A DNA stretch of 64,000 nucleotides, taken from the NCBI GenBank assembly GCA_964016885.1, contig OZ024741.1, forward strand, positions 324,322,001 through 324,386,000, given 5' to 3'. Positions 1 through 64,000 of the stretch are shown piece after piece. Position 1 is the stretch's first letter, and each line of letters opens with the position of its first letter. The DNA is from Eledone cirrhosa (lineage: Eukaryota). Made by a program: the position numbers and the translations under genes. A model generated the notes under the pieces. The model did no database searches. It saw nothing but the letters and a program-made list of their open reading frames with translations, and had not been told where the DNA came from.

Positions 1-1074
<1,074 letters not shown>

Positions 1075-4642: not shown

Positions 4643-4870
4643 TATATATATATGTAGATAATATATATAATATATATATATGTAGATAAATCTACCAAAA
4701 TGTACGGTAGTGTCCAATCCGTATGAAGATCTCAATGTAATCCAAATATCATGAAAAGAGAAGATGTATTCAAAAGTTTTTTTCGATGAAAAACACAGGA
4801 AAACAGAGTCAAGATAAATTAATAAAAATAATGAATAAAAACAAAGAAATAGTTCCTTATATTAAAAAAT

Positions 4871-5008
4871 TCATCATTTTACGATCGTTTCTAGGATATA
4901 TATGTGTGTGTTGGTATGTATATCATATAGATCTATGTAAATTTTTTACAAACTATCAGAGGGAATATACATACCTACACATATATATGCTGTCTTCAGA
5001 AATAATGA
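4871..5008 (-). ncRNA. Type I hammerhead ribozyme in the Naiad 3' pseudo-LTR, long stem II
   Basis: Minus strand: UCAUUAUUU-CUGAAGA-[about 100 nt hairpin]-GAAA-CGAUCG-UA/AAAUGAUGA. Confidence 0.85.
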
Positions 5009-5887
5009 TATTTGTTTATTGAAAAAAACCAACAAAGATTTAATATAATAGGTCTGTTTGGGAACAGGTTTTGAATTGACCAATAGAAAGGTAGTAAGTG
5101 GTCAAGATGGTAGAATAGTAGTAATGGAACTTTAATTTAGGGGTAGAGGAAAGCAGATTTCAGTTTTGAATGGAAAGAGTATATTGAATGAAAAGATTAT
5201 TTTGGGGATGAAAATAGGTCAAGTCGGTAAAAGGTACACGAAAATTTGATGTTATAAAAGAATAATGCTAATGTAAATATCTAAGGAGAATAACATTTTA
5301 CGATCAATGTGTTAGTGAAAAATATCAATCTTATTTAAAACATAAGGAATTTACATCTATAAAAAGAAAATAAATTAATTAAATTGATAGGTATATTTAT
5401 ATTGATAAATTTATATTAATTCATATAGATATGATAAATAAGAGTTAGATGTAATTGAAGAATGCTGTTAAAAACGAAGGGAAAATAAAATAATAATTAT
5501 TATTATTATTGGGTGGGGGTAAATGTATTAGTGAGAAATAACAAATTTATATAGATTATAAGGAATATAGATTCATAACCTGAAATTAAAATAGTTTATA
5601 TGTATACTTATTGGTATAAATTTTAGGAAAAGATAGCTGTAAAAGGGAAATAAAATTATGCAGTTCATTAGTAGTAGGATATTAATTATAGGTTAACTAA
5701 TTTAAAAAAAGTGTTAATATAATAATTTGTAAAGTGTATATTAATTAGGTTTATAATATTTAAAAGTTCTTCTCATTTTATGATTACATGATATAATTAA
5801 TTCCTGTCGCTTATTTAGTAGGATATCCTTATATTTCATTATTTCAAAAAGTTCCTGGGAACATAATCTACATTCATATCTATTAGT

Positions 5888-5972
5888 TTCATCCTTACTG
5901 TGTCGATAAAATAAAGTACCAGTAATGCACTGGGTAATTGCTAGCCTTGTGCCTAAAGTAGAAACAATTATT
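5888..5972 (+). mobile_element. 3' fragment of SINE S1 inserted into the Naiad GIY-YIG coding region
   Basis: TTTCATCCTTAC...GTCGATAAAATAAAGTACCAG...GTAGAAACAATTATT lies between the VTPY and YECRLC segments. Confidence 0.85.
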
Positions 5973-8420
5973 TTGATAAGGGGTGACCCTTTTGAGCACA
6001 CTCCAGGTCAGGTTATAATCTATATTCCTTTTTCTATAATTATTAATTATTTCAGCTAAGGATGTTGTATTAGCTAATGCGGCATTTTTAAAACTGTGTT
6101 TGTGGGTATTAAATCTTATTTTAAATTGGTTAGAAGTAGCTCCTATATATGAATAAGTTGAGTCCTTAGTGTTAATTTTACATTTATATACTATGTTATT
6201 AATAAGGCAATTTCCTTTTAATGGGCAATTTGCTTTGTTTCTACAGTTACAACCTTTCGTGAATGTTGTATCAGAGGAGATAGTCAAATTAGGTGTGGAA
6301 TTTTCTCGACTTGTTGTATGTGAATGAGATGGTGGTTTGCTGTGGTTTATTTTAGTATTATGGTTAGTTTGATGTATTGGTGGTATATTCATGTTTTTTT
6401 ACACTTATATGCATTATAGGCACTTATATTTTGTTGTATATTTTTGGTTGTTGAGTAGGAGAATTTAACCGTTGATCTATTTAAAATTTGATGGTATTTA
6501 TGGTTTGGCGGGAATTTTTCTCTAGGATAGTAAAACATTTTTTTAGGTATATTATCTTTAATTTGTAGATTAAATGGAGCATTATACCAAGTAACTCGTC
6601 TATTACGGTTTCGATGTTGTTTATTATTTTTATATGATGTATCCTGATGTTTATTAAGAGAATTAGTATTAGTGATTTTATTACACATATTTTTAGTTAG
6701 ATTCATTGATTTAGGTGTTTTAGTCTGTTTATTAGGAATTTTGTTATTAACATATATTGGAATATTAGGATGAATGGTTTTTTGAAAGTTACTATATTGT
6801 ATATTAGAAGAGTTAGAGAAATTAAGTTTTATGTTGGTATTTTTGGATATAGTGTGAGTGGCATTTAGGTGTGTATAGTTCATTTGGTGTCTGTTGGTAA
6901 TATTGGGTTGTATGTTTGTAGTGTTATTGGTACAAGGTATATATACTAATTTGTTTTTGTGGCCGCTTCTAGCTAAAGCTTCGTTATAAAAGGTCGCATT
7001 TTGATCAAATACATCCTGGTTAGACGAAAGGTTAGAAATTCTGAGTGAGATATTATATGCTAGGTTTTTAAGGATAGATTTAGGGTAATTAGATTGTGAG
7101 TGTATGTAATGTAAGTTTTGGCTAGGTTTATGGTAAGGTTGGTAGATACCCGTAGATAAGTCTAATGTTATATCAAGGAAATTAACTACTTTACTTGTGT
7201 TTTCAAATGTAATATCGAGACTATAATAGTCTTTGAGGAAAGTTCTAATAAGTTTTTTTATTTTTTCAATATCTGATATGCTAAGGTTATTGGAAAGAAG
7301 AAGACAGTCGTCACGATATAAACCACCTTTAAGGTGGGGAAAATAAGTATTTATGTTAAATAGAAGAAAGAGGCCCACAAGATCGGTAATTTGGGCAGAA
7401 TCACTGGAGCCCATAGTAATGTCGAATAGATTACTATATGTGTTTCTGGTCCAGTATTCTTTCTGAAATTCCAGTAGTGTTTTTCTAGCATGTGTGATAA
7501 TATTAATGTCATCCATAGTTAAGTTTGATCTATTTTTGGCAAATATCAAGGCTTTGTTCAGGAGTATAGGTGATATAGAGGAATAATAAGCATCTATATC
7601 GAATTGTAGAAATGAAGCAGACGATTTATTTCTAATATTAGTAAACCAGTTAATTACCTGGGATGTGTTTTCCCAGAGTGGTAAATTAACATGTTTTCTT
7701 AATTGTGGGATGACTCTATCTAAAAAAATTTTACTAATGATGCCAATGTCAGATTTGGAAGGGCATATAAGCCTTATAGAAGGATTAGAGTTAAAATTAG
7801 ATTTGTGATCTTTCAGGTTAAAATGTGGTTTTTTCAGTGCCAAAGGTTCAGTTCTATCTTCAATATTAAGCCTATTTACTATGTTGCGTGTTTTGTTGTT
7901 GATGTTGGTAAGTGCCGCATTGTTTGTTTTTTTTATAATTTTTCCTGAGTTCTTTATATATGAACTCATTGTAATTATCAATATCCATGTGATACAGATT
8001 TCCAGTTTTGTCAGAGTGGACATGGATTTTGTTAGATTTTTTTAGATCCAATAGGGTAGAATCAAGATCCTTTTGAAAATTAGATTTATATTTCTTAAAT
8101 TTGAGGTGTTTGATTAACTTAAAAAGGTCTTTCTCGAAGTTTTCAAGCAAGGAGTTGTGTGGTGGGTTCTTATATGTAGTGAAATCATATATATATATAT
8201 TTATATATACTATCAACACATGCATAAACTCACACTCACACATACAAGCACACACATCCCACCCACCCACATATATATATATATATATATATATATGTCT
8301 GTGTGTGTGTGTGTGTGTGTGTGAGTGTGTGTGTGTGTGCATCAAAACCAACATGTAAAACTTCAAATATGTATCGACATGTTTAATAATGTTCAAATGT
8401 TTCCTCATTCATTCGTCTAG

Positions 8421-50040: not shown

Positions 50041-51490
50041 AACATACATACATACATACATACATACATACATACATACATACATACATACATACATACA
50101 TACATACATACATAACATGACATACATACCTTACGTAATTTCTTTTATAAAACTACAGCAGACGATACTAAACAATATCAGACGATATCAGACGATACTA
50201 AACGATATCAGACGATATCAGACGATAGATGATGGATTTTCCACACTGTACCGACACGGATTTTTATGAAAACGTTGGATAGATGCTTTGGTGTATTCAT
50301 TCCGGCTTTCAGCGATCTGAGCTTAAACCCTGCCGAGGTCAACATTACCTTTCATTCCTTCGAGAACTATAAAAAGGTCTCTTTCTGAATTCCTCTCTAT
50401 CACTAAATTTCCTTTTCAGGAAGAAATAGGCTGTGTTCAGACATGGTGAGTGGATGGGCTCCGCCAACGAGCAGCGAATGCAATTACGGCGCCTTAACGA
50501 CTACATCAGGGGTGACGGGTACATATATACATATATACCGACACCGACCTTACAACGACTCTCTCTTCTCCCGTTATTGAAGCACACACCTCAACGCCAC
50601 CTCTTTACAGTGGGTCATGCGCATACTTTAAAGAATAGACAAAATAAGCATCCATTTATTTCCAGACGACAATTATACAATTTCCTTTCATTGACCCACA
50701 ACTCGTTGTTGTTCAGCTTAGTGTGACGTAACAGTTACTGATGAAAGAGACCTCATACACTTTGTTCATCACATTAAAATATTATGTCAGCTTTCAATCT
50801 TCTATATAATGTTTAATCTCGGATGAAAGGTCGCAGCCATCATAGACAACATTCAGAATGCTGTGTTTGTGTGTTTATGTGCCTATGTATGTATGTATTT
50901 ATGTATGTATGTGTGTATGTATGTGTGTATGTGTGTATGTTTGTATGTATGTATTTATGTGTGTATGTATCTATATATGTCCGTTATGTATGCATGCGCG
51001 GGTGTGTGCATGAGTCTATGTGTACGTGCGTTTACGTTTTTGTGTCGGTCAGTGCGACAGTGTGTGTGTGCGTGTACGTATGTGTAGCATAAGAGTATTT
51101 GTGTCTACAACTGTGACCTCGTAAGATCTTGACTATCACCGTTAATTTAACAACTGCACTCTTCCTTCAAATGATCACGACCTCCAGCTAATGACAAATA
51201 TCATTGCATTCGTTGTTGCTGTATATACGTTAAAAAAAAAGCATTTACAGGGCAAGTCGATATTTTGAAATGGACCATAAGAATAATGGCTTCTGATTTA
51301 GGCACAAGGCCAACAATTTTTGGTAGGAGGGAAAGTCAATTAAATCATCACTGTGCATTACAGGTGCTTTATTTTATCGACGCTGTAGGGATGAAAGGCA
51401 AAGCTAACCTCGGCGGGATATGAACTCAGAATGTAAAGGGCCATGAAACACACACATACACACACACATATACATAATATGCATATATAT

Positions 51491-54400
51491 GATGGCTGAT
51501 AACTCGTTTTCGAGTACGGCCACTACTTTATATCCATGTAGGAGAACCCCTACCGATGCGCTGAACGAGTGTGGCTTTTTTAGTCCAGCCAGCGACTTGA
51601 AAACTCTGGTACAAACACTACACTTGTGACAATTATTGACACTTAGTGCTGGGCCCATGGTACCATGTGACCGAAGATCACTACTCGACCTGCATACCCT
51701 TCCACAAACATTACATGTCGTCGTCTGATGAACACTTATATCTCCACAGGTGCCTGCTTCCCTGTTCTTGTTCACTCTCAGGTGACTCTCTAGACCTGCC
51801 ATACCTGCCAAAACCCTATTACAGGTCCCACATGTCAGGTCAGGCCGTCTGTCAGTACCTTCGGGAAGGCCAACATGGATTCCTTTCCGGACATTTCTTT
51901 TTAGTGTCGCGTGCCTTCTTCTTGTTTCCTCAAATAGACTCTTGCCACTAGCCACTGCTTTCCGCCAAAGCGATCGGTCGCTAGCGCATGCTTCCCAGTG
52001 CTCACAAGGGATATTACTTTTCTTGAGAGCCCCCTTGATGCAGTCCTTAAAACGCATCTTGGGTTTGCTCGCGTTCCTTTTTCCCATTTGGAGCTCGCGA
52101 TAAAGCAGCTGCTTCGGTATTCGCTTGTCATTCATCCTTAAAAGATGGCCGGTCCAGCGCAGCTGATGTTTCAAAATCAAGGACTCGACACTATCACAGC
52201 CACTTCTGTCGAGAACCTCGACGTCACTGACAAACATTTGCCAAGTTATGCCGAGTAACCGACGTAAGCAGTACTGGTGGAAGCTCTCAATCGCTTCATC
52301 TCTCTACGGTAGACCACCCACTTCTCACAAGCATAAAGAAGTGCCGCGAGCACACACGCATGATACACTTTGAGCTTTGTCTTTACCGAAATTCCCTCTT
52401 GAGTCCAGAGACGCTTGTTCAGTTTTCCAAAAGCATCACTGGCTTTCTGTATCCTGTATGATATTTCCTCATCAAGATCGCAGGACATACTCAGAGTGCT
52501 TCCAAGATATACAAAACTGCCAACGACCCTTAGCCTTTCACCATAAACCAAGATGTTGGGCTCACAACATGGCTTCCCAGGGGCTGGTTGGTACATGGCT
52601 ACTGTCTTTTCCAGGTTTATGGTAAGTCCTAATGCAGTACACGCATTAGAAAATGCATCCATGAGATGCTGCATATCAATATCCGTGTGCGTTACCAGGT
52701 CACAGTCATCTGCATAAAGCAAATCCCTGATTAGTGACAAGTGAACCTTTGACTTAGCATTGAACCACCTGATATTAAACAGCTTTCCAGTTGATCGGTA
52801 GCGAACATACATACCATGATTGCAGTTCCCGAAGGCCTGTTCGAAGACAATGGAGAAGTACAAAGCAAAGAGCGTTGGAGCTGGAATGTCACCCTGTTTG
52901 ACTCCATTCTCGACCGTCACCGGCTCAGAGAGCTTTCCACCAACATTTACCCATGCCTTCATGTCATCATGAAACAAACGCAAAATGGAAACAAACTTCT
53001 CAGGGCACCCCAGCTTCCTCAAGATATCCCCTAAAGCCTTTCTGTTGACCGTGTCAAATTTGTCAGATCAACAAACACCTGGTAGAGATCCACATTCTGC
53101 TCAACACACTTTTCCTGCAGTTGTCTGGCTGTAAAGATCATGTCCACAGTGCCACGCCCAGCCCGAAAGCCCGATTGCGACTCTGGTAGAGCTTCATCAG
53201 CAATGTGGAGCAATAAACGGTCCAACAGAATTCTACAGAGAACATTGCCGACAACAGACAACAGTGATATCCCACGATAGTTTCCGCAGTTATCTCTGTC
53301 TCCATTTCCCTTGTACAAAACAACCATCACAGCATCCTTCCAGTCATCGGGAACATGATTGTTGTTCCAGGCATCCAGAACCAAAGCATGAAGTCGGTGC
53401 AAGAGATTCTCTCCACCGTGCTACAAGATCTCAGCATACAGCCCATCCAATCCAGGCGACTTCCCACCATTGAGTTTCCAGACAGCACTTTTAACCTCCT
53501 CGATCGTTGGAGGCTCAGCAAGGACTTTCTTTACTGGCTTATCAGGTATGGACCTGATAAACTCTTCGTCAACCTCTGAATCCCTATTGAGAAGCTCATC
53601 AAAGTGTTCCCGCCATCTCAACAGGATATCATTGGGATCTCTAAGGATCTGATTGCCATCCTTTGTTCTAAGAGGCGCAACTGGTGATGTAGGTGGTACA
53701 TACACTTCACGAAGAAGATTATACATTGCCTTAACGTCCTTCACATCCGACGCAAGATGCATTTCATCGGCTTTGTCATGCCACCACTTATTCTTCATTT
53801 CACGCAATTTTCGTTGCACATCAGCTTTACGAGCTTCAGCTTATCAGCGATTGCCTTCTGCCGATCGGTGCTTAAATCACTACCAAGCAGTGCGGAGTGG
53901 AGAATATGTTTCTCCTCCAAAAGCTTGTCTATAAGCTTGTCATTTTGGTCAAACCAATCCTGATGCTTCTCATCCGTGAATCCAACAACATCAACACATG
54001 CCCCATAAACTGCCTCCTTAAAGGAAGTCCAGTCATTTCCGCACTTTAATGCATCCATCTTTTTAACTAGCCAGATTTTCTCTGACTTCAGGATGCTTCA
54101 GACGGGCAACGTTCAGCCGTTTCGGAAGTGATACCCCTCGCCGTTTCTCCCTTTTACGAACTACACATCTTGCTCTTGCTCTCACCAGACGATGGTCGGT
54201 CCAACACTCTTCCCCACGCATCACACGAACACTGCACAGATCCTGTACATCCCGCCGCCTCACAAAGACATAATCAATCAGGTACCACTGTTTCGATCCA
54301 GGATGCATCCAAGTTGTCTTGTATTTGTCCTTCTGTTGGAACATAGTGCTGCCAATGAACAAGTCCAGCTCAGTGCACATTTGCAATAACAAGAGTCCAT

Positions 54401-54780
54401 TGCCATTACACTTTCCGACCCCATGCTTGCCCAGAGCTCTCCAGGTCTCATAATCACGGCCCACGCGAGCATTAAAATCTCCAAGAATGAAAATTTAGTC
54501 TGCTGCAGGCACTTTCCAGACAAGAGACCTAAATTCATCATAAAAAGCCTGCTTTGCTTCATCAATGCATTCCATTAGTTGGTGCATAAGCACCAATCAC
54601 GGTTGCATATCTTCCACCCTCTAGAGGAACTCTCACAATGATGAGTCTGTCACTAACGCCTGTCGGCAGCTCCTGAAGATAATCTGTTATAACTGTTTTT
54701 ATGGCAAAAGCGACACCAGCTTCCATCCTCCCCTCCTTCCTTCCCCTCCAGAAAAACGTATATCCACCGGATTTCTCTGT
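51491..54780 (-). mobile_element. RTE-clade LINE (APE endonuclease, RT, C-terminal C2H2-like fingers), disrupted
   Basis: GYTFFWRG, YAPT, GVGKCNGNG, TTWMH...LIDY, TDHRLV, NYRGISLL, ESQSGFR, GVKQGD, LYADD, QLRWTGH, CxxC...H repeats; multiple frameshifts. Confidence 0.93.
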
Positions 54781-54819
54781 GAATATATATATATATACGT
54801 ATATATATACATATATATT

Positions 54820-54875
<56 letters not shown>

Positions 54876-55347
54876 TAAAAGGAAAAGAAAATGCTGACAA
54901 ATTTTTCCCAGTGAAAAATAGTTTAATTAGGAATAAGTATAAATTAGTAATAAGTATTGGTTAGTATTCAGTTTTAGTTTTAAGTTTTTACCGGTTGCGC
55001 ATTTCTAATGCTTTTCAAAAATAATTTTGAGATAGAGCGCCCGTGATGTTTGCTCTAATCCTTCATATATATTCATGTATATATATATATATGTATACAT
55101 GAATATATATACATACATATATGAACACATACATATATATATATGTATACACACATACATACACACACACACACTCATGTATATAACAGAGTGAACAGCA
55201 AATAGACATAATATAGCTACATTAGTATAAACACATATGTGGTGTCCATCATTTCCCACTTTTGCTCGATGAATGAATTAAATAAATAATACATTAATCA
55301 GAGTTACACACACACTCACACACACACACATATATATATATTTAAAT

Positions 55348-56464: not shown

Positions 56465-56551
56465 TTGTCTTAATAGACACCTGAACTGTTGACCTCTCAA
56501 CATGACTGCAACTCAATCAAGCGGAAAAGGAGACTCTTCGACAAACCTACA

Positions 56552-56700
56552 TTTGGCGCGAAACCAGTTCGCGCTAAAATCAATTTAAACATTCACGTGA
56601 CTTCTACCGACCAATCGAAATTGTTTTGACTACAAGAATTTTTGCAACACGAATTGGCGCGAAATTTATAGTGCTTATTCACGTGATATTCAACAACCAA
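56552..56700. promoter_or_regulatory. Duplicated E2F-site, E-box and CCAAT module inside a repeat-like tract
   Basis: TTTGGCGCGAAA 56552-63, TCACGTGA 56593-600, CCAAT 56611; TTGGCGCGAAA 56654-64, TCACGTGA 56679-86. Confidence 0.5.
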
Positions 56701-56994
56701 CCAAATTTTAATACCTCCCAACCCACTTTTTTCACATAAAAAAGGAAGAATTTCCAAAACTGATCAGATTAGAGGAAAAATCAAGAGCACTCTATCTCAA
56801 AATTATTTTTGAAAAGCATAAGAAATGCGCAACCGGTAAAAATTTAAAACTAAAACTGAATACTAACTAATACTTATTACTAATTTATACTTATTCCTAA
56901 TTAAATTATTTTTCACTGGGAAAAATTTGTTAGCATTTTCTTTTCCTTTTTACAAATATATATATATATAATATATATATATATATATTTTTAA

Positions 56995-57572
56995 AGAAAT
57001 GTTCTTATTTTACGTCTTATATATTATTGTTCTGCATTCTCCTGCATTGAACCACCTAGGTACTATGACATAACCTGTGTATTTGCTGGCATTAGCGTAC
57101 ATCTGTGCGCTTATGTTAGTAGATATATTAAATTATCTATATTTATCTCCAAATCACTGATTTGTCGAGCAAACCTGCCAAAACCACTTCTAAATTTTTT
57201 TTTGGGGTGTTAGTAGGCGTTTGTCATCTTACCATCCCATTCCTACTGACTAGCCTCTGTGTCACGTGATTGATTCTTTAGAATCGGCCATATGATCAGT
57301 GGCAGTGAGAATTTTCAGTGGCTGGAATCCAGTCCTCGATAGCTGTTCCAGTTGCCGAATTATTATTATTTTTATATGAGTCCCCAGTGTCCGCGCATCG
57401 CCTGGAGACTCGGCTGAGAATGACCTCCCTGATGACGCAATGAATTTCTCAACAGTTCATTACGTAACTGTCTTTATCCCATTGCAGAAGCTAATTAGTT
57501 GGAGTGAAAATTTAAGTAAGTAAGTTAATTTTTTAAAAAAATATTTTTTAATGAAATTTTCTTATTTTACGT

Positions 57573-57580
<8 letters not shown>
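56995..57580 (+). mobile_element. Family C retrozyme-like unit (period 557) with hammerhead at 57425-57504
   Basis: CTTATTTTACGTCTTATATA at 57004 and 57561; CUCC-CUGAUGA-cGCAAUG...CAUUGCa-GAAG-CUAAUUAG-UU/GGAG. Confidence 0.75.
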
Positions 57581-57636
<56 letters not shown>

Positions 57637-57837
57637 AGTATGTATGTATTCCTCCCGTTAGACCTGTGCCTAATTCCTTCCTTGCTCACATTTCAACCAG
57701 GTTTGATGGTCTTTATTCTCTCGTTCACGATTTCACCGAATTTATATTCATAGAAATCTGGGACTTGTCTCTTCCTTCATCACTTTCTGTTGCTTAAACC
57801 ATTTTGTTTGTTTACCCTAGCGTCCCCTTTATTTACG

Positions 57838-57941
57838 TGTCCCAACGACTTTTTTTAGCCGTTGCTCGCACCACCCTGAGGTATATGGCCTTTAAAGCGA
57901 TGAAATGCCTACGACGGTTGGAAGGCCACTGATGAAGGACA
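57838..57941 (+). ncRNA. Candidate permuted k-turn hammerhead, copy 2 (cut after A57885)
   Basis: Same layout as copy 1; GAAA 57902-05; CUGAUGA 57929-35. Confidence 0.62.
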
Positions 57942-58463
57942 AACTTTTTCATATGTAACCCATTTGCAACGCCGCAGCTCCATTATTATCATATTTACAC
58001 ATATATGTTTTCCTCTGCTGCTACCCGTCTGTTTCGTTATTTGTATCTTTACCCTTTCTAGCAGTCTCTCTCTCTCTGTTAGCCTCTTCCTCACCTTTCA
58101 CTCACTCATTGTCTGTCACTACCTCTCCTCCTCCCCTTTCTTCCCGTTTGACCTGTTCCTTAATTCTTTTCTCGCGCGCTCTTGTCCAAGCCGGTATGAA
58201 TTTTTTTCTCTCTCTCTCTCGTCTGCGACTTCACAGAACTTATGTTTACCGAATTCGCAGACCAGACCCCTTCTTCCTCCCGTTAGACCTGTGCGAAATT
58301 CCTTCCTTGCTCACATTTCAACCAGGTTTGATGGTCTTTATTCTCTCGTTCACGATTTCACCGAATTTATATTCATAGAAATCTGGGACTTGTCTCTTCC
58401 TTCATCACTTTCTGTTGCTTAAACCATTTTGTCTGTTTACCCTAGCGTCCCCTTTATTTACGT

Positions 58464-58565
58464 TATCCAACGACTTTTTTTAGCCGTTGCTCGCACCAAC
58501 CTGAGGTATATGGCCTTTAAAGCGATGAAATGCCTACGACGGTTGGAAGGCCACTGATGAAGGAC
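58464..58565 (+). ncRNA. Candidate permuted k-turn hammerhead, copy 3 (cut after A58510)
   Basis: CCAACC-U-GA-GGUAU-A-UGGCCUU-uaaagcgaU-GAA-AUGCC-UAC-GA-C-GGUUGG-AAGGCCA-CUGAUGA-A. Confidence 0.65.
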
Positions 58566-58625
58566 AAACTTTTTCATATGTAACCCATTTGCAACGCCGC
58601 AGCTCCATTATTATCATATTTATAC

Positions 58626-58884
58626 ATACATATATGTATACAGACGTACTGTAGTATGTATATATATACATACATGCACACATATATATGGACGTATCAG
58701 TTTACCGAACATTTATTATAATGCTCGGGCTGTTTGTTTGTAAACAAACAAACAGCCCGAATTACGCCGTACAAACAAACCGACCATTATAATAAATGTT
58801 CGGTAAACCGATACGTGCATATATATATGTGTGCATGTATGTATATATATACATACTACTGTACGTCTGTATACATATATGTAT
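58626..58884. repeat. Nested inverted repeat (about 95 bp arms, inner perfect hairpin)
   Basis: Outer arms are reverse-complementary; inner TCGGGCTGTTTGTTTGT-aa-ACAAACAAACAGCCCGA. Confidence 0.8.
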
Positions 58885-59685
58885 TTACGTATACATCCAT
58901 ACTTGCATTTAAGTAACTGCCGTACTAAGAGTGAGAAATGAAATTTCGTTTCATTCTATTCCATTTATATATATATATTGACCGCCAGCAGTCTTACTGT
59001 TATAACTCACTCCCGAAAGCGGCATAGAACGGAAACCTGTTGAGAAAGTGAACTCTCTGTTCGATCTTCCAGAACCAATGACTTGCATACCACGCAAGTG
59101 GATATTGTTGATTTTGGATTCACAGAAAACTATCGGCGATATTGCTTAATATCGACGCGATGGTCCAGGCTTGTCAAATTATCCTGAGTTGGTTTTCTCG
59201 TTGCTTTGGTCCTTGCGGCTGGCTTACCAGTCGCAATCTTCAATTTGCCAAGCTGTTTAAACATAATGTTATTACTCTAAGGTAAAATACCTTATTGAGT
59301 GCTTAGCGTCACATTCCGATTGTATTCGTTAGCTTAGCTGCAGCCAGAGCTTCGATTATACTGAACTTCCATTTGTATATATATATATATATATATTCGA
59401 TCGACTTTCGTCAAATCGGACCGAGGAAACAATGTCTCCATTGCTTTTTCCAATTGCTAATACTATCTATCGGTCGCAACTCCAGTTAGAAGGAGCAACG
59501 TGAAATAACGTCTCTTGCTCAATGATATAACCCATCGCCCGGTCCGGGAATCGAACTCACAACCTCACGATTGGGAATCAATTTCTCTAACCACTCAGCC
59601 ACACGCCTTCACACACACACACACACGCACACACATATATATATATATATACTATATATATATATACTATATATATATATATATA

Positions 59686-60341: not shown

Positions 60342-62082
60342 CACCGTGTAACATATTTTATGTTCACCGGTTCTAAGTGTCATTTCATGGTTTGTTATAT
60401 CTCATTATTACAAAAGAAAACACACTATTATTTAATCAGAAGTTAGGGTTTGTGGTCAGGAGTTTGATATTTCGAAATGTTCATATTTTTCGAGAAAAAA
60501 CACATTTTTTAAAAGTTTATCAGTTCATATAATTAAATCAACAGAGTATATATTTATTTTATTACACAAGCTTATCAAAAGCAAACAAGTAAACACAAAT
60601 AACACTTATAAAGCAACTTATACACGTCAGAAATGACTGGATTTCCTGGATTTGCGGTTGTAGTCCAGGTCGTATTCCCGCACTAGCCCCCAGATATAGT
60701 CCCCCATCATTCTTTCATTGTAGTGGCCCTCGTACCTCCGCTCTATCTCTTTCAAATCTTGGTGGAATCGTTCGCCTTGTTCTTCTGAGTAGCCGCCCAT
60801 ATTGTCCTTGAAGTTTTCCAGGTGAGCGTTCAGCATATGGAGTTTAAGCGACATCCTGCATCCCATGGCGCCAAAAGCCTTTATCAGATCCTGCACCAGT
60901 TGCTGGTAATTTTCAGCTCTATAGTTGCCCAGGAAGCCCTTAAAAACTGCCTTGAAACAGTTCCATGCTGTTCTCTCAATCCTATTGAGCTTATTGGAGA
61001 ACTCGGTAGACTCAAACACCTTTATCTGAGGTCCAACAAAATTCCACCTTTGATTTTGGCCTCAGATAACTTGGGGAAGAACTCAAGAAGGTATTTAAAA
61101 GCGGCTGATTCTTGGTTGAGAGCCTTCACAAACTGCTTCATCAACCCCAACTTAATGTGCAGTGGCGGCATGAGCACAATCATGGGATCAACCAGTAGCT
61201 CCCACATGACGTTCCGGGTCCCAACTACAAATTCTGTTCGCTGCTCCCAGTTCTTTATTTTGTAGTGGCCAGATATGGCTCTGCTGTCCCAAAAGCAGAG
61301 CAATCATTGGAATTTGATAAAGCCTCCTTGAAGTCCAAGCAGGAAAGCCACCATCTTGAAGTCTCCAATAATTTCCCAATTGTACTGGTTGTATTGCAGA
61401 GCTTCCAAGAGGACTTTCAGACTGTAATAATCTTCCTTCATGCAGACTGAATGAGCTAGGGGCAGTGTCGGGAACTTGTTTCCATTGTGGAGGAGGTCAG
61501 CCTTCAAACTTGTGGTGGAGCTATCTATAAATAGCCGCCACTCCTTGGGTACAAACGGCACCCTTATAACCTCAAACAGTCCAGGCACGTCATAGCATAA
61601 GCAGAGGCCATACCTAAGAATGTAAAAGCCTGAGAGAGGTTCGTGTCGACTTCTCTGACTTGTCACCTGCACTTCCTCCTTGACCAAGTTCCACTGCTTC
61701 ATCCTGGAGACGAATGCTTAAAACACAATTTACCCTTTATTCAGGGTGCGAAAATCCAGTATCAATAAATCTCTTTAATCCACTTTTTAACAATTTTATA
61801 CTTTATTCCACTTTTATAATTTTCTTTAGGTATTACTCTTTATTTTATAATTTTAATTTAACCTGAAACATATATAAAAAAATCATTTAACATAAGGAAA
61901 TTAAACTTACATACAACGTAAAATCCAGCATACAAATAATTCTAGTGAATAGCTTAGAATTTTTACAAACCCAAACTTTTAGCTGTTTAATAGCACTTCT
62001 TTTATTTATTTGGGACCTAAGCAACACAAAAAAGTGATTACAAGCCAGGAACAAAGAAAAAGTTTTTTTTGTTTTTTTATTA
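60342..62082 (-). mobile_element. Chapaev3-like (CMC) DNA transposon, transposase disrupted and N-terminally deleted
   Basis: LFIDSS..SLKA.LLHNGN, GDFKM..FLLGLQGG, PPLHIKLGLMKQFVKAL, MSLKLH, SEEQGERFHQD; terminus CACCGTGTAACA; TAA duplicated at 60339-41 and 62083-85. Family name is from recalled motifs. Confidence 0.8.
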
Positions 62083-64000
62083 TAATCAGAACATGGAAAG
62101 ATTACGAAAAAACATTAGAATATTCTTTTAAAAAACTAGGCCTAGGTATCGCCTTCGAACTTAACTCTAAAAAAGCAAATTTCATAGAAGTAACTCTCAA
62201 CCTAAACACAGGACTAATCGAGTCCTTCCATAAGATTAACGAAAACCTAGCCTATATTAGTTACAACTCAAATCACCCCCGATCCATAATTAACTCCATA
62301 GAACATAGTATATCCCTCAGAATATCCCGCCTATCTTCGAACCTAGAAATGTTTAATGAACACGCAAACTATTATAACTTAGCTTTACATAAGGCTGGAC
62401 ATAGGGAGAAGCTGCAATACATACTAGACAAAGACAACAACAAACCTAATGACACCAACACTACTCGCTCATACAGAAATAACAAGCATAGGACTAAGCA
62501 TAGAATTAAACAACGAGCACCAAAAATAACCGAACAGAACACTAATAATAGGAACCCCCAAAACTATAAAAGAACCAGAGTGAGAAAGTACCTATGGTTC
62601 GATCCAATTTTCAACTCCTCTATTAAAACTACCTTCTACATTCTATAAACTAATAGCTAAACACTTCCCTACACTACACAGATACCATAAAATCTTCAAT
62701 AGAAAAACTATAAAACTTTCATACACTACAGCAGCCAACTTAGAATCGCACATACGTAAGATCAACCACAAAAATAACTCTAAGGAATCTATCCTACCAA
62801 CGCACACCGTAGCACCAAATACAAAACACAAACACATGTCAACATCACAACCACAAACATATCAGGAGGCATCACAACAAAACATTAAAAGGCCTAAATC
62901 ACAACCCACCCACAACAACTTACAAAATCGCAATGAAGAACATGCACAAAATAAAACCTCAAACTGTAATTTCCACCTACCAGATAAGTTCCCACTACGT
63001 AATAGATGCCTGGATTCGAGCATGGTATACCTGTGTACTGTGAATTCAGGCAACTCTACTTGGCACTACATAGGTTCTACAGCTGGGGCGTTTAAGAAAA
63101 GGTGGTACGTCCACAGACACTCCATGAAAAACCATGCACTGGAGAATTCTACAACGCCCGCCAATAAAATCTGGCTGCTTAAGGAATACAAGATAAGCTG
63201 GTCAAAATTTTCGGCAGCAAAAGCCTACAGCAACGGTATGTCCCACTGCGGGCTCTGTAATTTAGAACTGCTATATATTTTAAGCTACGATAAGATGCTG
63301 CTTAACAGCAAAATAGAAAGATTCATTTTTTGTAGGCATAAAATAGCTACTAGATTTACAAACTTCAAACCACCATGATTCGAACCAGCAATCCCAAAAT
63401 TAGTACTGAACCACCTAGACTTTAACATATAGAATACATACGTTCACATCGCTATTAGCTATCATACTGCCAACCGATCACAGGATTATAAATCTCTGTA
63501 CACTTATTCCACACTCTCTCCATCAACTTCATTAAGATAGAACAACCAACATCAACAACGAACGTTTATCAAATGACCCGTCAACCCATAAATAGTATAC
63601 ACCAATTAATCTATATTTTATTGTTTTCTATTTTACCGGACCCTCCACACAAATTTATCTACTTCTAAAATCTGATCTCTCATGTTAGCACCAAGGAACA
63701 CTTTCTTAAAATCTAACTCTAAGTACAATATATCACTCTTTCATTTCTTTTATTTCTTTCTATTTTCCATTTCCTCGTTTTCTTCTTATTATTATTTTTC
63801 AATGTACCCTACATTGTATCTTACTTGTCACTTTTTACACCTGTAACTTCTCTATCGATTTACCATACATGTTTTATTTTTAATTATACGCCGCTCTATT
63901 ATTGATGTTATTGTTTTGTTTTACGCTACTCCTCTATATAAGTCTTGCCTCGAGTGAATTATTTTCATATCTATGTGCTCTGATGTGTTGACAAGTGGTA

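Follow-up and report, generated by a model that had tools for sequence, protein, structure and literature searches.

The stretch of Eledone cirrhosa DNA analysed here (64,000 nt of contig OZ024741.1, referred to as the window) carries two insertions of a tandem repeat, family A, near its left and right ends, together with a PLE. The features concerned are as follows.

1..296, minus strand: the left insertion's inverted (fold-back) arm, 500 nt overall, 204 nt of which precede the window
296..~981, plus strand: forward arm of the left insertion, period 621, 1.1 units, of a subfamily in which GAAA is preceded by C and the core followed by G
854..924, plus strand: permuted hammerhead motif, copy 1, predicted cut after 873
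978..1062, no strand: (TA)n tract bordering the left insertion on its 3' side
4680..8408, minus strand: Hydra-clade PLE, frameshifted, with a type I hammerhead-like motif near 4880-5000; a candidate helper, outside family A
57575..57633, no strand: (TA)n target tract to the left of the right insertion
57649..58622, plus strand: right insertion, 5'-truncated, 974 nt or 1.56 head-to-tail units, with the long 3' end (self-BLAST, unit mapping)
57866..57936, plus strand: permuted hammerhead motif, copy 2, predicted cut after 57885, helix X with one mismatch
57886..58510, plus strand: one full cut-to-cut unit, 625 nt, 43.5% GC, pyrimidine-rich, without credible ORF
58491..58561, plus strand: permuted hammerhead motif, copy 3 (descriptor scan, covariation)
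58575..58579, plus strand: short-end site, about 69 nt past the cut, at which inverted arms across the genome terminate, as do a minority of single arms
58580..58619, plus strand: PLE-type tail of 40 nt between the two end classes, with a putative second RT start at about 58619-58624

Self-BLAST and unit mapping confirmed the tandem arrangement that the sequence-only reading had described at both loci, with periods of 621 and 625. The overlapping copies of the right locus are 97.5% identical across 358 nt at an offset of 625, the left forward arm is 92.8% identical to the right locus, and the left fold-back is a 99.8% palindrome. Cuts are predicted after 873, 57885 and 58510; one unit of 625 nt separates the last two, as had been proposed, and the common right end claimed for the two loci was measured at 108-112 nt beyond the predicted cut, where both run into (TA)n. 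The absence of a credible ORF was likewise borne out, as the longest ATG ORF touching the right locus comprises 60 aa and a stop-to-stop frame of 172 codons gave no Pfam match. No Rfam family reached its gathering score in the window, and the 36 Rfam matches at E<=10 within 57500-58800 included no ribozyme; a descriptor for the order cut site, GAAA, CUGANGA matched the window only three times. A MITE-like, near-perfect inverted repeat at 58633-58890 adjoins the right insertion on its right. Two broken non-LTR retrotransposons occupy 33548-37134 and 51404-54960, both on the minus strand, one of them with a 766-aa RT frame, the other RTE-like judging by its motifs.

The hammerhead motif, as judged by sequence and pairing, occurs once per unit, at one-unit spacing. 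Its predicted parts in copy 3, all on the plus strand, are as follows.

58491-94: upstream stem II strand; 58522-26: stem II 3' strand
58496-501 with 58541-46: outer helix X
58504-09 with 58530-35: stem III, predicted cut after A58510
58511-17 with 58547-53: stem I
58527-30: GAAA; 58554-60: CUGAUGA; 58561: base that can pair with 58526

Family A thus has the hammerhead core nucleotides in the order cut site, GAAA, CUGAUGA, which is that of the type SGC hammerhead, a type that was defined, and its cleavage shown, from metatranscriptomes; none was found in genomes of known organisms according to the accessible sections of that study (PMC10085705). Readings of the motif as a type I, II or III hammerhead failed, because no GAAA lies at a usable distance after the core. 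Stem II is split: one pair joins the bases that flank GAAA on its 5' side and CUGAUGA on its 3' side, and the next four bases pair with positions 58491-94 upstream of the cut. Among 131 family A matches, the base before GAAA and that after the core were T-A in 85, C-G in 33 and another combination in 13, with a mismatch in 12. The part of stem II contiguous with CUGANGA is 1 bp at most (Watson-Crick in 118/131), and block C is interrupted. A literature search, to which most subscription journals were out of scope, found neither the SGC order nor the layout with an upstream stem II in animals or PLEs, and the family A motif is not described in the accessible parts of PMC13282606 or PMC13725137.

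Covariation was evaluated in 39 sequences of family A and its nearest relatives, namely 38 of 41 picks (three truncated ones were left out) and the window copy. In this set 92.6% of the cells were paired, against 33-45% in slid controls, and both sides had changed at 10 of 25 pairs (shuffle mean 4.4, 0/500), figures to be read with the copies being related, the structure drawn from the same copies and the core demanded by the pick. Most of the signal is carried by stem I, with double changes at 4/7 pairs. Stem III showed only one-sided changes within the A group, its letters differing across families; the upstream stem II showed one double change; and helix X, paired in 94.9% of cells, owed its double changes mostly to one diverged sequence (L291). 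Within family A the core did not stand out as significantly better conserved: 1/13 of its columns had shared variants, versus 72/567 of the other columns (p=0.5). Pseudoknot-free folding gave MFE z values of 0.2 to -1.2 for four isolated motifs and of -3.8 for the whole unit (20 shuffles). The linkers of 2 and 5 nt between helix X and stem III make a tight geometry for a monomer, and a dimer fold may therefore be needed. The motif is predicted, and likely, to cleave itself.

In order to define the family beyond the window, as the sequence-only reading had called for, the 3.0-Gb assembly was searched and the ends of the copies tabulated. A 33-nt pattern of the ribozyme motif gave 1,982 exact matches and its reversed control none, which excludes chance, and the tail pattern gave 1,208 matches. 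Irrespective of reading frame, 43 distinct full units measured 596-640 nt, and the family is young, nearest neighbours being mostly 1-4% apart. Insertions were mapped in three overlapping samples (24, 28 and 48 insertions, with two insertions split by the gap rule), and positions are given as q, the number of bases after the predicted cut. In the positional sample, that is the first 30 motif matches representing 24 insertions, 14 insertions were single-arm, 12 of these ending at q~109-114 and 2 at q~69, and 10 had an inverted arm, which in 8 cases paired a long with a short end; 38 of 48 flanks were TA-rich. A short-query sample (28 insertions) gave long ends in 16/19 single arms and long-short pairs in 9/9 inverted structures, and a long-query sample (48 insertions) gave such pairs in 12/13, the exception being the fold-back of the window. 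The 3' ends are therefore fixed rather than random, in two classes 40 nt apart, whereas the 5' ends scatter across the unit. Arms with at least two cut sites occurred in 3/24 and 10/28 insertions of two samples, and the longest arm, at locus L062, extends over 2,985 nt or 4.8 units with five cut sites.

A tail, inverted arms, 5' truncation and a (TA)n bias mark PLE insertions, which are mostly 5'-truncated (PMC8557442), and the tail is bounded by two internal RT start sites in vitro (PMC11167929); our use of the term tail follows these two reports as far as they were accessible. Family A shows a 40-nt tail, 5'-truncated copies, inverted 5' arms and a preference for (TA)n, and its PLE-type mobility is thus well supported. 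Amplification as satellite-type DNA, or an assembly artefact, might be suspected from the near-perfect palindrome of the left locus, and is extremely unlikely: the insertions are short and dispersed with fixed 3' ends and a target bias, the polarity of the ends by itself already refutes such an origin, and the unit with its head-to-tail joint was also present in contigs of three public runs from one sample, which may be the source of the assembly and is silent on expression. It is also very unlikely that the unit belongs, as terminal repeat or UTR, to an undetected coding PLE whose 5'-truncated remains make up the dispersed copies. The prevalence of 5' truncation among PLE insertions (PMC8557442) would agree with such an origin, and inspection covered about 90 of the roughly 2,000 copies; yet upstream of the unit there was always another unit, an inverted arm or the flank and never a shared coding sequence (24, 28 and 48 insertions, overlapping), and a PLE ORF was attached within about 6 kb upstream at 0/13 loci of related motifs. 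A PLE ORF on the same terminus, for which the sequence-only reading had proposed to look, was absent from the inspected copies, and no coding element with a family A terminus was seen in any locus.

To examine the template of reverse transcription, 40 of the 1,208 tail matches were fetched, 20 without a match in the motif list, a choice that favours truncated copies, and 20 in contig order. On a linear monomer running from cut to cut, reverse transcription primed at q109 would end at q1. Of the 39 readable tail-bearing copies (one further copy was masked), 36 run 5' through the predicted cut, arguing for a continuous template; the other three start at q3, q14 and q47, and 5 of the 40 fetched copies extend into a further unit instead of ending. 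A cleaved linear monomer was consequently rejected as the template, only one of the 39 copies starting near the cut, and 7 of 132 arm starts in the overlapping samples falling at the cut, about the number expected by chance for the mapping window. Divergence is 1.4% between units of one array (6 pairs, 0.2-3.7%) as opposed to 5.5% between loci (897 pairs), which is compatible both with a circle and with an uncleaved multimer. Among the RNA runs searched, none was listed as containing the unit. From the sequences of the copies, the template could equally be the one or the other.

It is accordingly quite possible, if somewhat short of an even prospect, that circles have no role at all, the template being an uncleaved or partly cleaved multimer of the source array, with arrays rebuilt by template jumps as in PLE pLTR formation and a slow or protein-assisted ribozyme serving RNA processing only. 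The read-through of the cut is explained equally well in this manner. Uncleaved RNA was the dominant substrate of an Anolis PLE, for which the accessible part of PMC11167929 reports no RNA-seq reads starting at the cut, and ribozyme mutants left insertion in vitro unchanged (PMC11167929); SGC ribozymes are slow (0.007-0.13 per min; PMC10085705). At L062 and L063 the 3'-most unit deviates from the preceding units at several sites, which is unexpected from a single circle and argues against one at those loci. Against a template without circles, 5' truncation should shorten arrays in each generation, yet arms often have at least two cut sites; a pair of L062 units is only 0.2% divergent; and other animal retrozymes accumulate as circles (PMC7229834).

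Family A is not alone in its genome. The block order recurs in no fewer than six additional families without ORF, among them B, C, D, E, F and H. A spacing pattern that does not require stem I gave 104 matches genome-wide versus none in the control, and stem I was paired at five or more of six positions in 22/30 fetched loci against 1/29 matches of a similar pattern in viral contigs, which as carriers of the motif yielded chance matches only. A loose pattern gave 2,861 matches (control, 295), a figure that is not a copy number, since a sample of ten was mixed (three with the clear layout, one weak, two type I, four with nothing). Among side observations, a sister family (L031-L060, for example L044 and L057; 3,743 first-look candidates) has a period of 527 nt, a rebuilt stem I, a CUGACGA core, an AUA or AUC site and a 3' end at q~117. 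The six or more additional families lie at L150-L189, L037, L038, L291, L297 and L298, the F-like ones having GUC or GUU sites and a tandem spacing of 570-790 nt, and a repeated canonical type I hammerhead family is present at L289 and L290.

When 12 family representatives were compared by pairing each strand with its own partner or with that of another family, stem I scored 4.7 versus 2.4 of 5 and stem III 4.9 versus 3.1, both stems having been partly selected for, and the upstream stem II scored 4.3 versus 3.1 bp and helix X 5.0 versus 3.6 bp. In families B and F, the G pairing with the C before GAAA comes from the upstream strand, and the base that follows the core is variable or unable to pair; it was unpairable while the upstream strand paired in 5/11 matches of family B and in L038, L297 and L298.

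The core not being significantly conserved within family A and the contiguous stem II being just 1 bp, the motif might be a vestige, family A then being an ORF-less pLTR derivative like Chlamydomonas MRC1 with the structure kept as a binding or RT-start signal; only 1/9 Xenopus retrozyme dimers cleaved in vitro, according to the accessible part of bioRxiv 10.64898/2026.07.22.740005. We regard this as improbable. Seven family groups have stem I and helix X rebuilt in different letters with the spacing of GAAA, CUGANGA and the UH site kept, in searches that demanded these core motifs, and the layout recurs in Naiad PLEs of four named phyla.

Naiads encode EN-RT and are described as lacking canonical hammerheads, 18 of 54 having been flagged 'HHR_core' or 'HHR_half_core' (PMC8557442). 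Read by eye, with 30 of the 54 consensus 3' ends covered in full, the supplement to PMC8557442 holds 11 published Naiad ends with the SGC-order layout, most of them with an upstream stem II strand, which would put this layout outside the six published permutations: 7 of 13 ends (Beroe, Clytia-3, three Acropora, Morbakka-2 and Pomphorhynchus), 3 of 16 others (two Octopus and Euprymna) and one unnamed entry, amounting to about eight independent sequences. In seven Naiads the upstream stem II has 4-6 bp in letters that differ each time (GGCTCC/GGAGCC, GGGGA/TCCCC and GACGCC/GGCGTC, for example) and always opens with G-C, and the base after the core is never G; the Euprymna end is degenerate. As read from these ends, the Naiad layout would be that of SGC opened between A9 and 10.1. 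Other Naiads have the classic order or different motifs, two nematode entries combining the classic order with a long stem II (by eye). The ends of Saccoglossus, Ptychodera, Clytia-1/-2 and several bivalves carry other 3' motifs, found across phyla and not hammerhead-like by eye; such conserved motifs are possibly other structured RNAs. The layout common to family A and Naiads suggests, and makes plausible, a Naiad ancestry of the family A motif.

Which PLE now supplies the enzyme is a separate matter, for which the sequence-only reading had named Naiads. The window PLE, at 5895-8408, has DKT, CxCX5C as well as a GIY-YIG endonuclease at the C-terminus, which by the criteria of PMC8557442, as far as accessible, place it in the Hydra clade and not with Naiads. 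The Naiads of this genome, which resemble published octopus Naiads by eye, are represented by 46-53 decayed matches, none of which has an open frame above 233 aa, and no recognisable motif was found in four of these decayed loci. Searches of the genome with Naiad motif patterns gave 0, 2 (control, 2) and 4 matches, a result in which a distant lineage could be missed, and the octopus-Naiad ribozyme pattern gave 0 matches. The nomination of Naiads as present helpers thus found little support; such a role is unlikely unless a distant intact lineage escaped these searches. Family A is coeval with abundant Hydra and Neptune PLEs, which insert in (TA)n, have two end classes and tails of about 33-38 nt, and have nearest neighbours that are 94-99% identical. 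The Hydra family had 72,873 first-look candidates, with open frames of up to 845 aa and a type I motif by eye, and of 1,789 matches to a generic endonuclease pattern all 30 fetched were Neptune. We consider it fairly likely that one of these two is the present helper.

Several other PLE sequences were noted. Positions 56500-56955 (plus strand) of the window are the 3' end of a Neptune family member, 700 nt to the left of the right insertion, and positions 61983-63378 (plus strand) hold a second, more decayed PLE that is Hydra-like with a C-terminal GIY-YIG. The Hydra 3' UTR in L099-L119 contains a repeat of about 113 nt with a lone CUGAUGA half core, in several copies per element. At L187:2-3073 (plus strand) lies a PLE whose open frame has 1,023 aa, with a CX4CxxC linker and, within the 3' end, a motif resembling the type I hammerhead, possibly a recent family and a further helper candidate.

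Taken together, family A is probably of the retrozyme kind, a retroelement that is not autonomous and is copied by the reverse transcriptase-endonuclease of a PLE. Of the retrozyme originally proposed, the ORF-less, non-autonomous, PLE-mobilised tandem element with a permuted hammerhead motif and a continuous template has stood (1,982 matches, end maps, 36/39 read-through, covariation), and the Naiad as present helper has found little support. In the mechanism that we propose, family A arrays would be transcribed and the motif would fold as a double pseudoknot, in which the loop of a hairpin made of helix X and stem III pairs downstream with stem I and upstream with the stem II strand. Cutting after A58510 would yield monomers of about 625 nt that could be ligated into circles. 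A PLE protein would nick both strands of a (TA)n tract, cDNA would start at two internal sites, about 69 and 109 nt past the cut, and the continuous template would be copied until the enzyme falls off; the joining of two cDNAs would produce the inverted structures.

A wider proposition, drawn from the same layouts and to our minds evenly poised, is that an SGC hammerhead opened between A9 and 10.1, active and of a seventh layout with its stem II strand upstream of the cut, may be the missing ribozyme of many 'hammerhead-less' Naiads (ctenophores, cnidarians, acanthocephalans and cephalopods), and that in this genome it may have seeded thousands of copies of ORF-less circular-RNA parasites in at least seven families, which would have outlived their Naiad parent and would now ride the enzyme of another PLE clade. 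If so, non-circularly permuted hammerheads would move from anonymous metatranscriptome contigs to animal genomes, in thousands of copies; a layout would be added that the published six-permutation scheme excludes; there would be a candidate answer to why many Naiad PLEs appeared hammerhead-less; and retrozyme surveys using type I descriptors would overlook whole families. The end maps provide evidence, at the level of single bases, for PLE machinery integrating an animal retrozyme-like element at two internal RT start sites, a connection hitherto argued from co-occurrence and pLTR similarity.

Like the animal non-LTR retrozymes of PMC7229834 and bioRxiv 10.64898/2026.07.22.740005, as far as these sources were accessible, family A consists of ORF-less tandem units with one hammerhead motif each and a GC content below 45%, dispersed as monomers to multimers alongside PLEs. 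Its unit of 625 nt exceeds the 150-450 nt given in PMC7229834 and lies within the 51-972 nt of bioRxiv 10.64898/2026.07.22.740005. In contrast to those elements, family A is described here at the DNA level, with PLE tail, twin ends and inverted arms mapped to the base, and its motif is not type I and has no Rfam hammerhead match; not being type I sets it outside the animal non-LTR retrozymes proper. MRC1 and the non-autonomous Chlamys elements are likewise ORF-less, head-to-tail and PLE-mobilised, but they resemble the 3' end of their helper, and the accessible text of PMC8557442 describes no ribozyme for them. The Hydra and Neptune PLEs of this genome share with family A the (TA)n target, the two end classes and a similar age, whereas both encode proteins and Hydra carries a type I hammerhead-like motif (by eye); between the Neptune 3' end and family A there was no similarity beyond simple sequence. 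Naiads share the (TA)n bias, the tail, the inverted 5' arms and, by eye, the motif layout (PMC8557442, in part), and differ in being coding elements, their likeness to family A being one of layout. With HRIMA-1 and the other type SGC variants, family A has in common the order cut site, GAAA, CUGANGA, a short linker between stems I and II, and an extra helix joining the outer ends of these stems, as set out in the main text of PMC10085705. In type SGC the stem II strand follows CUGANGA, whereas family A has one pair there at most and the rest of stem II is located upstream of the cut, like the 5' strand of helix X; for families B and F, as for the Naiads, the entire stem II would be upstream, which breaks the assumption of an unbroken block C made in that text.
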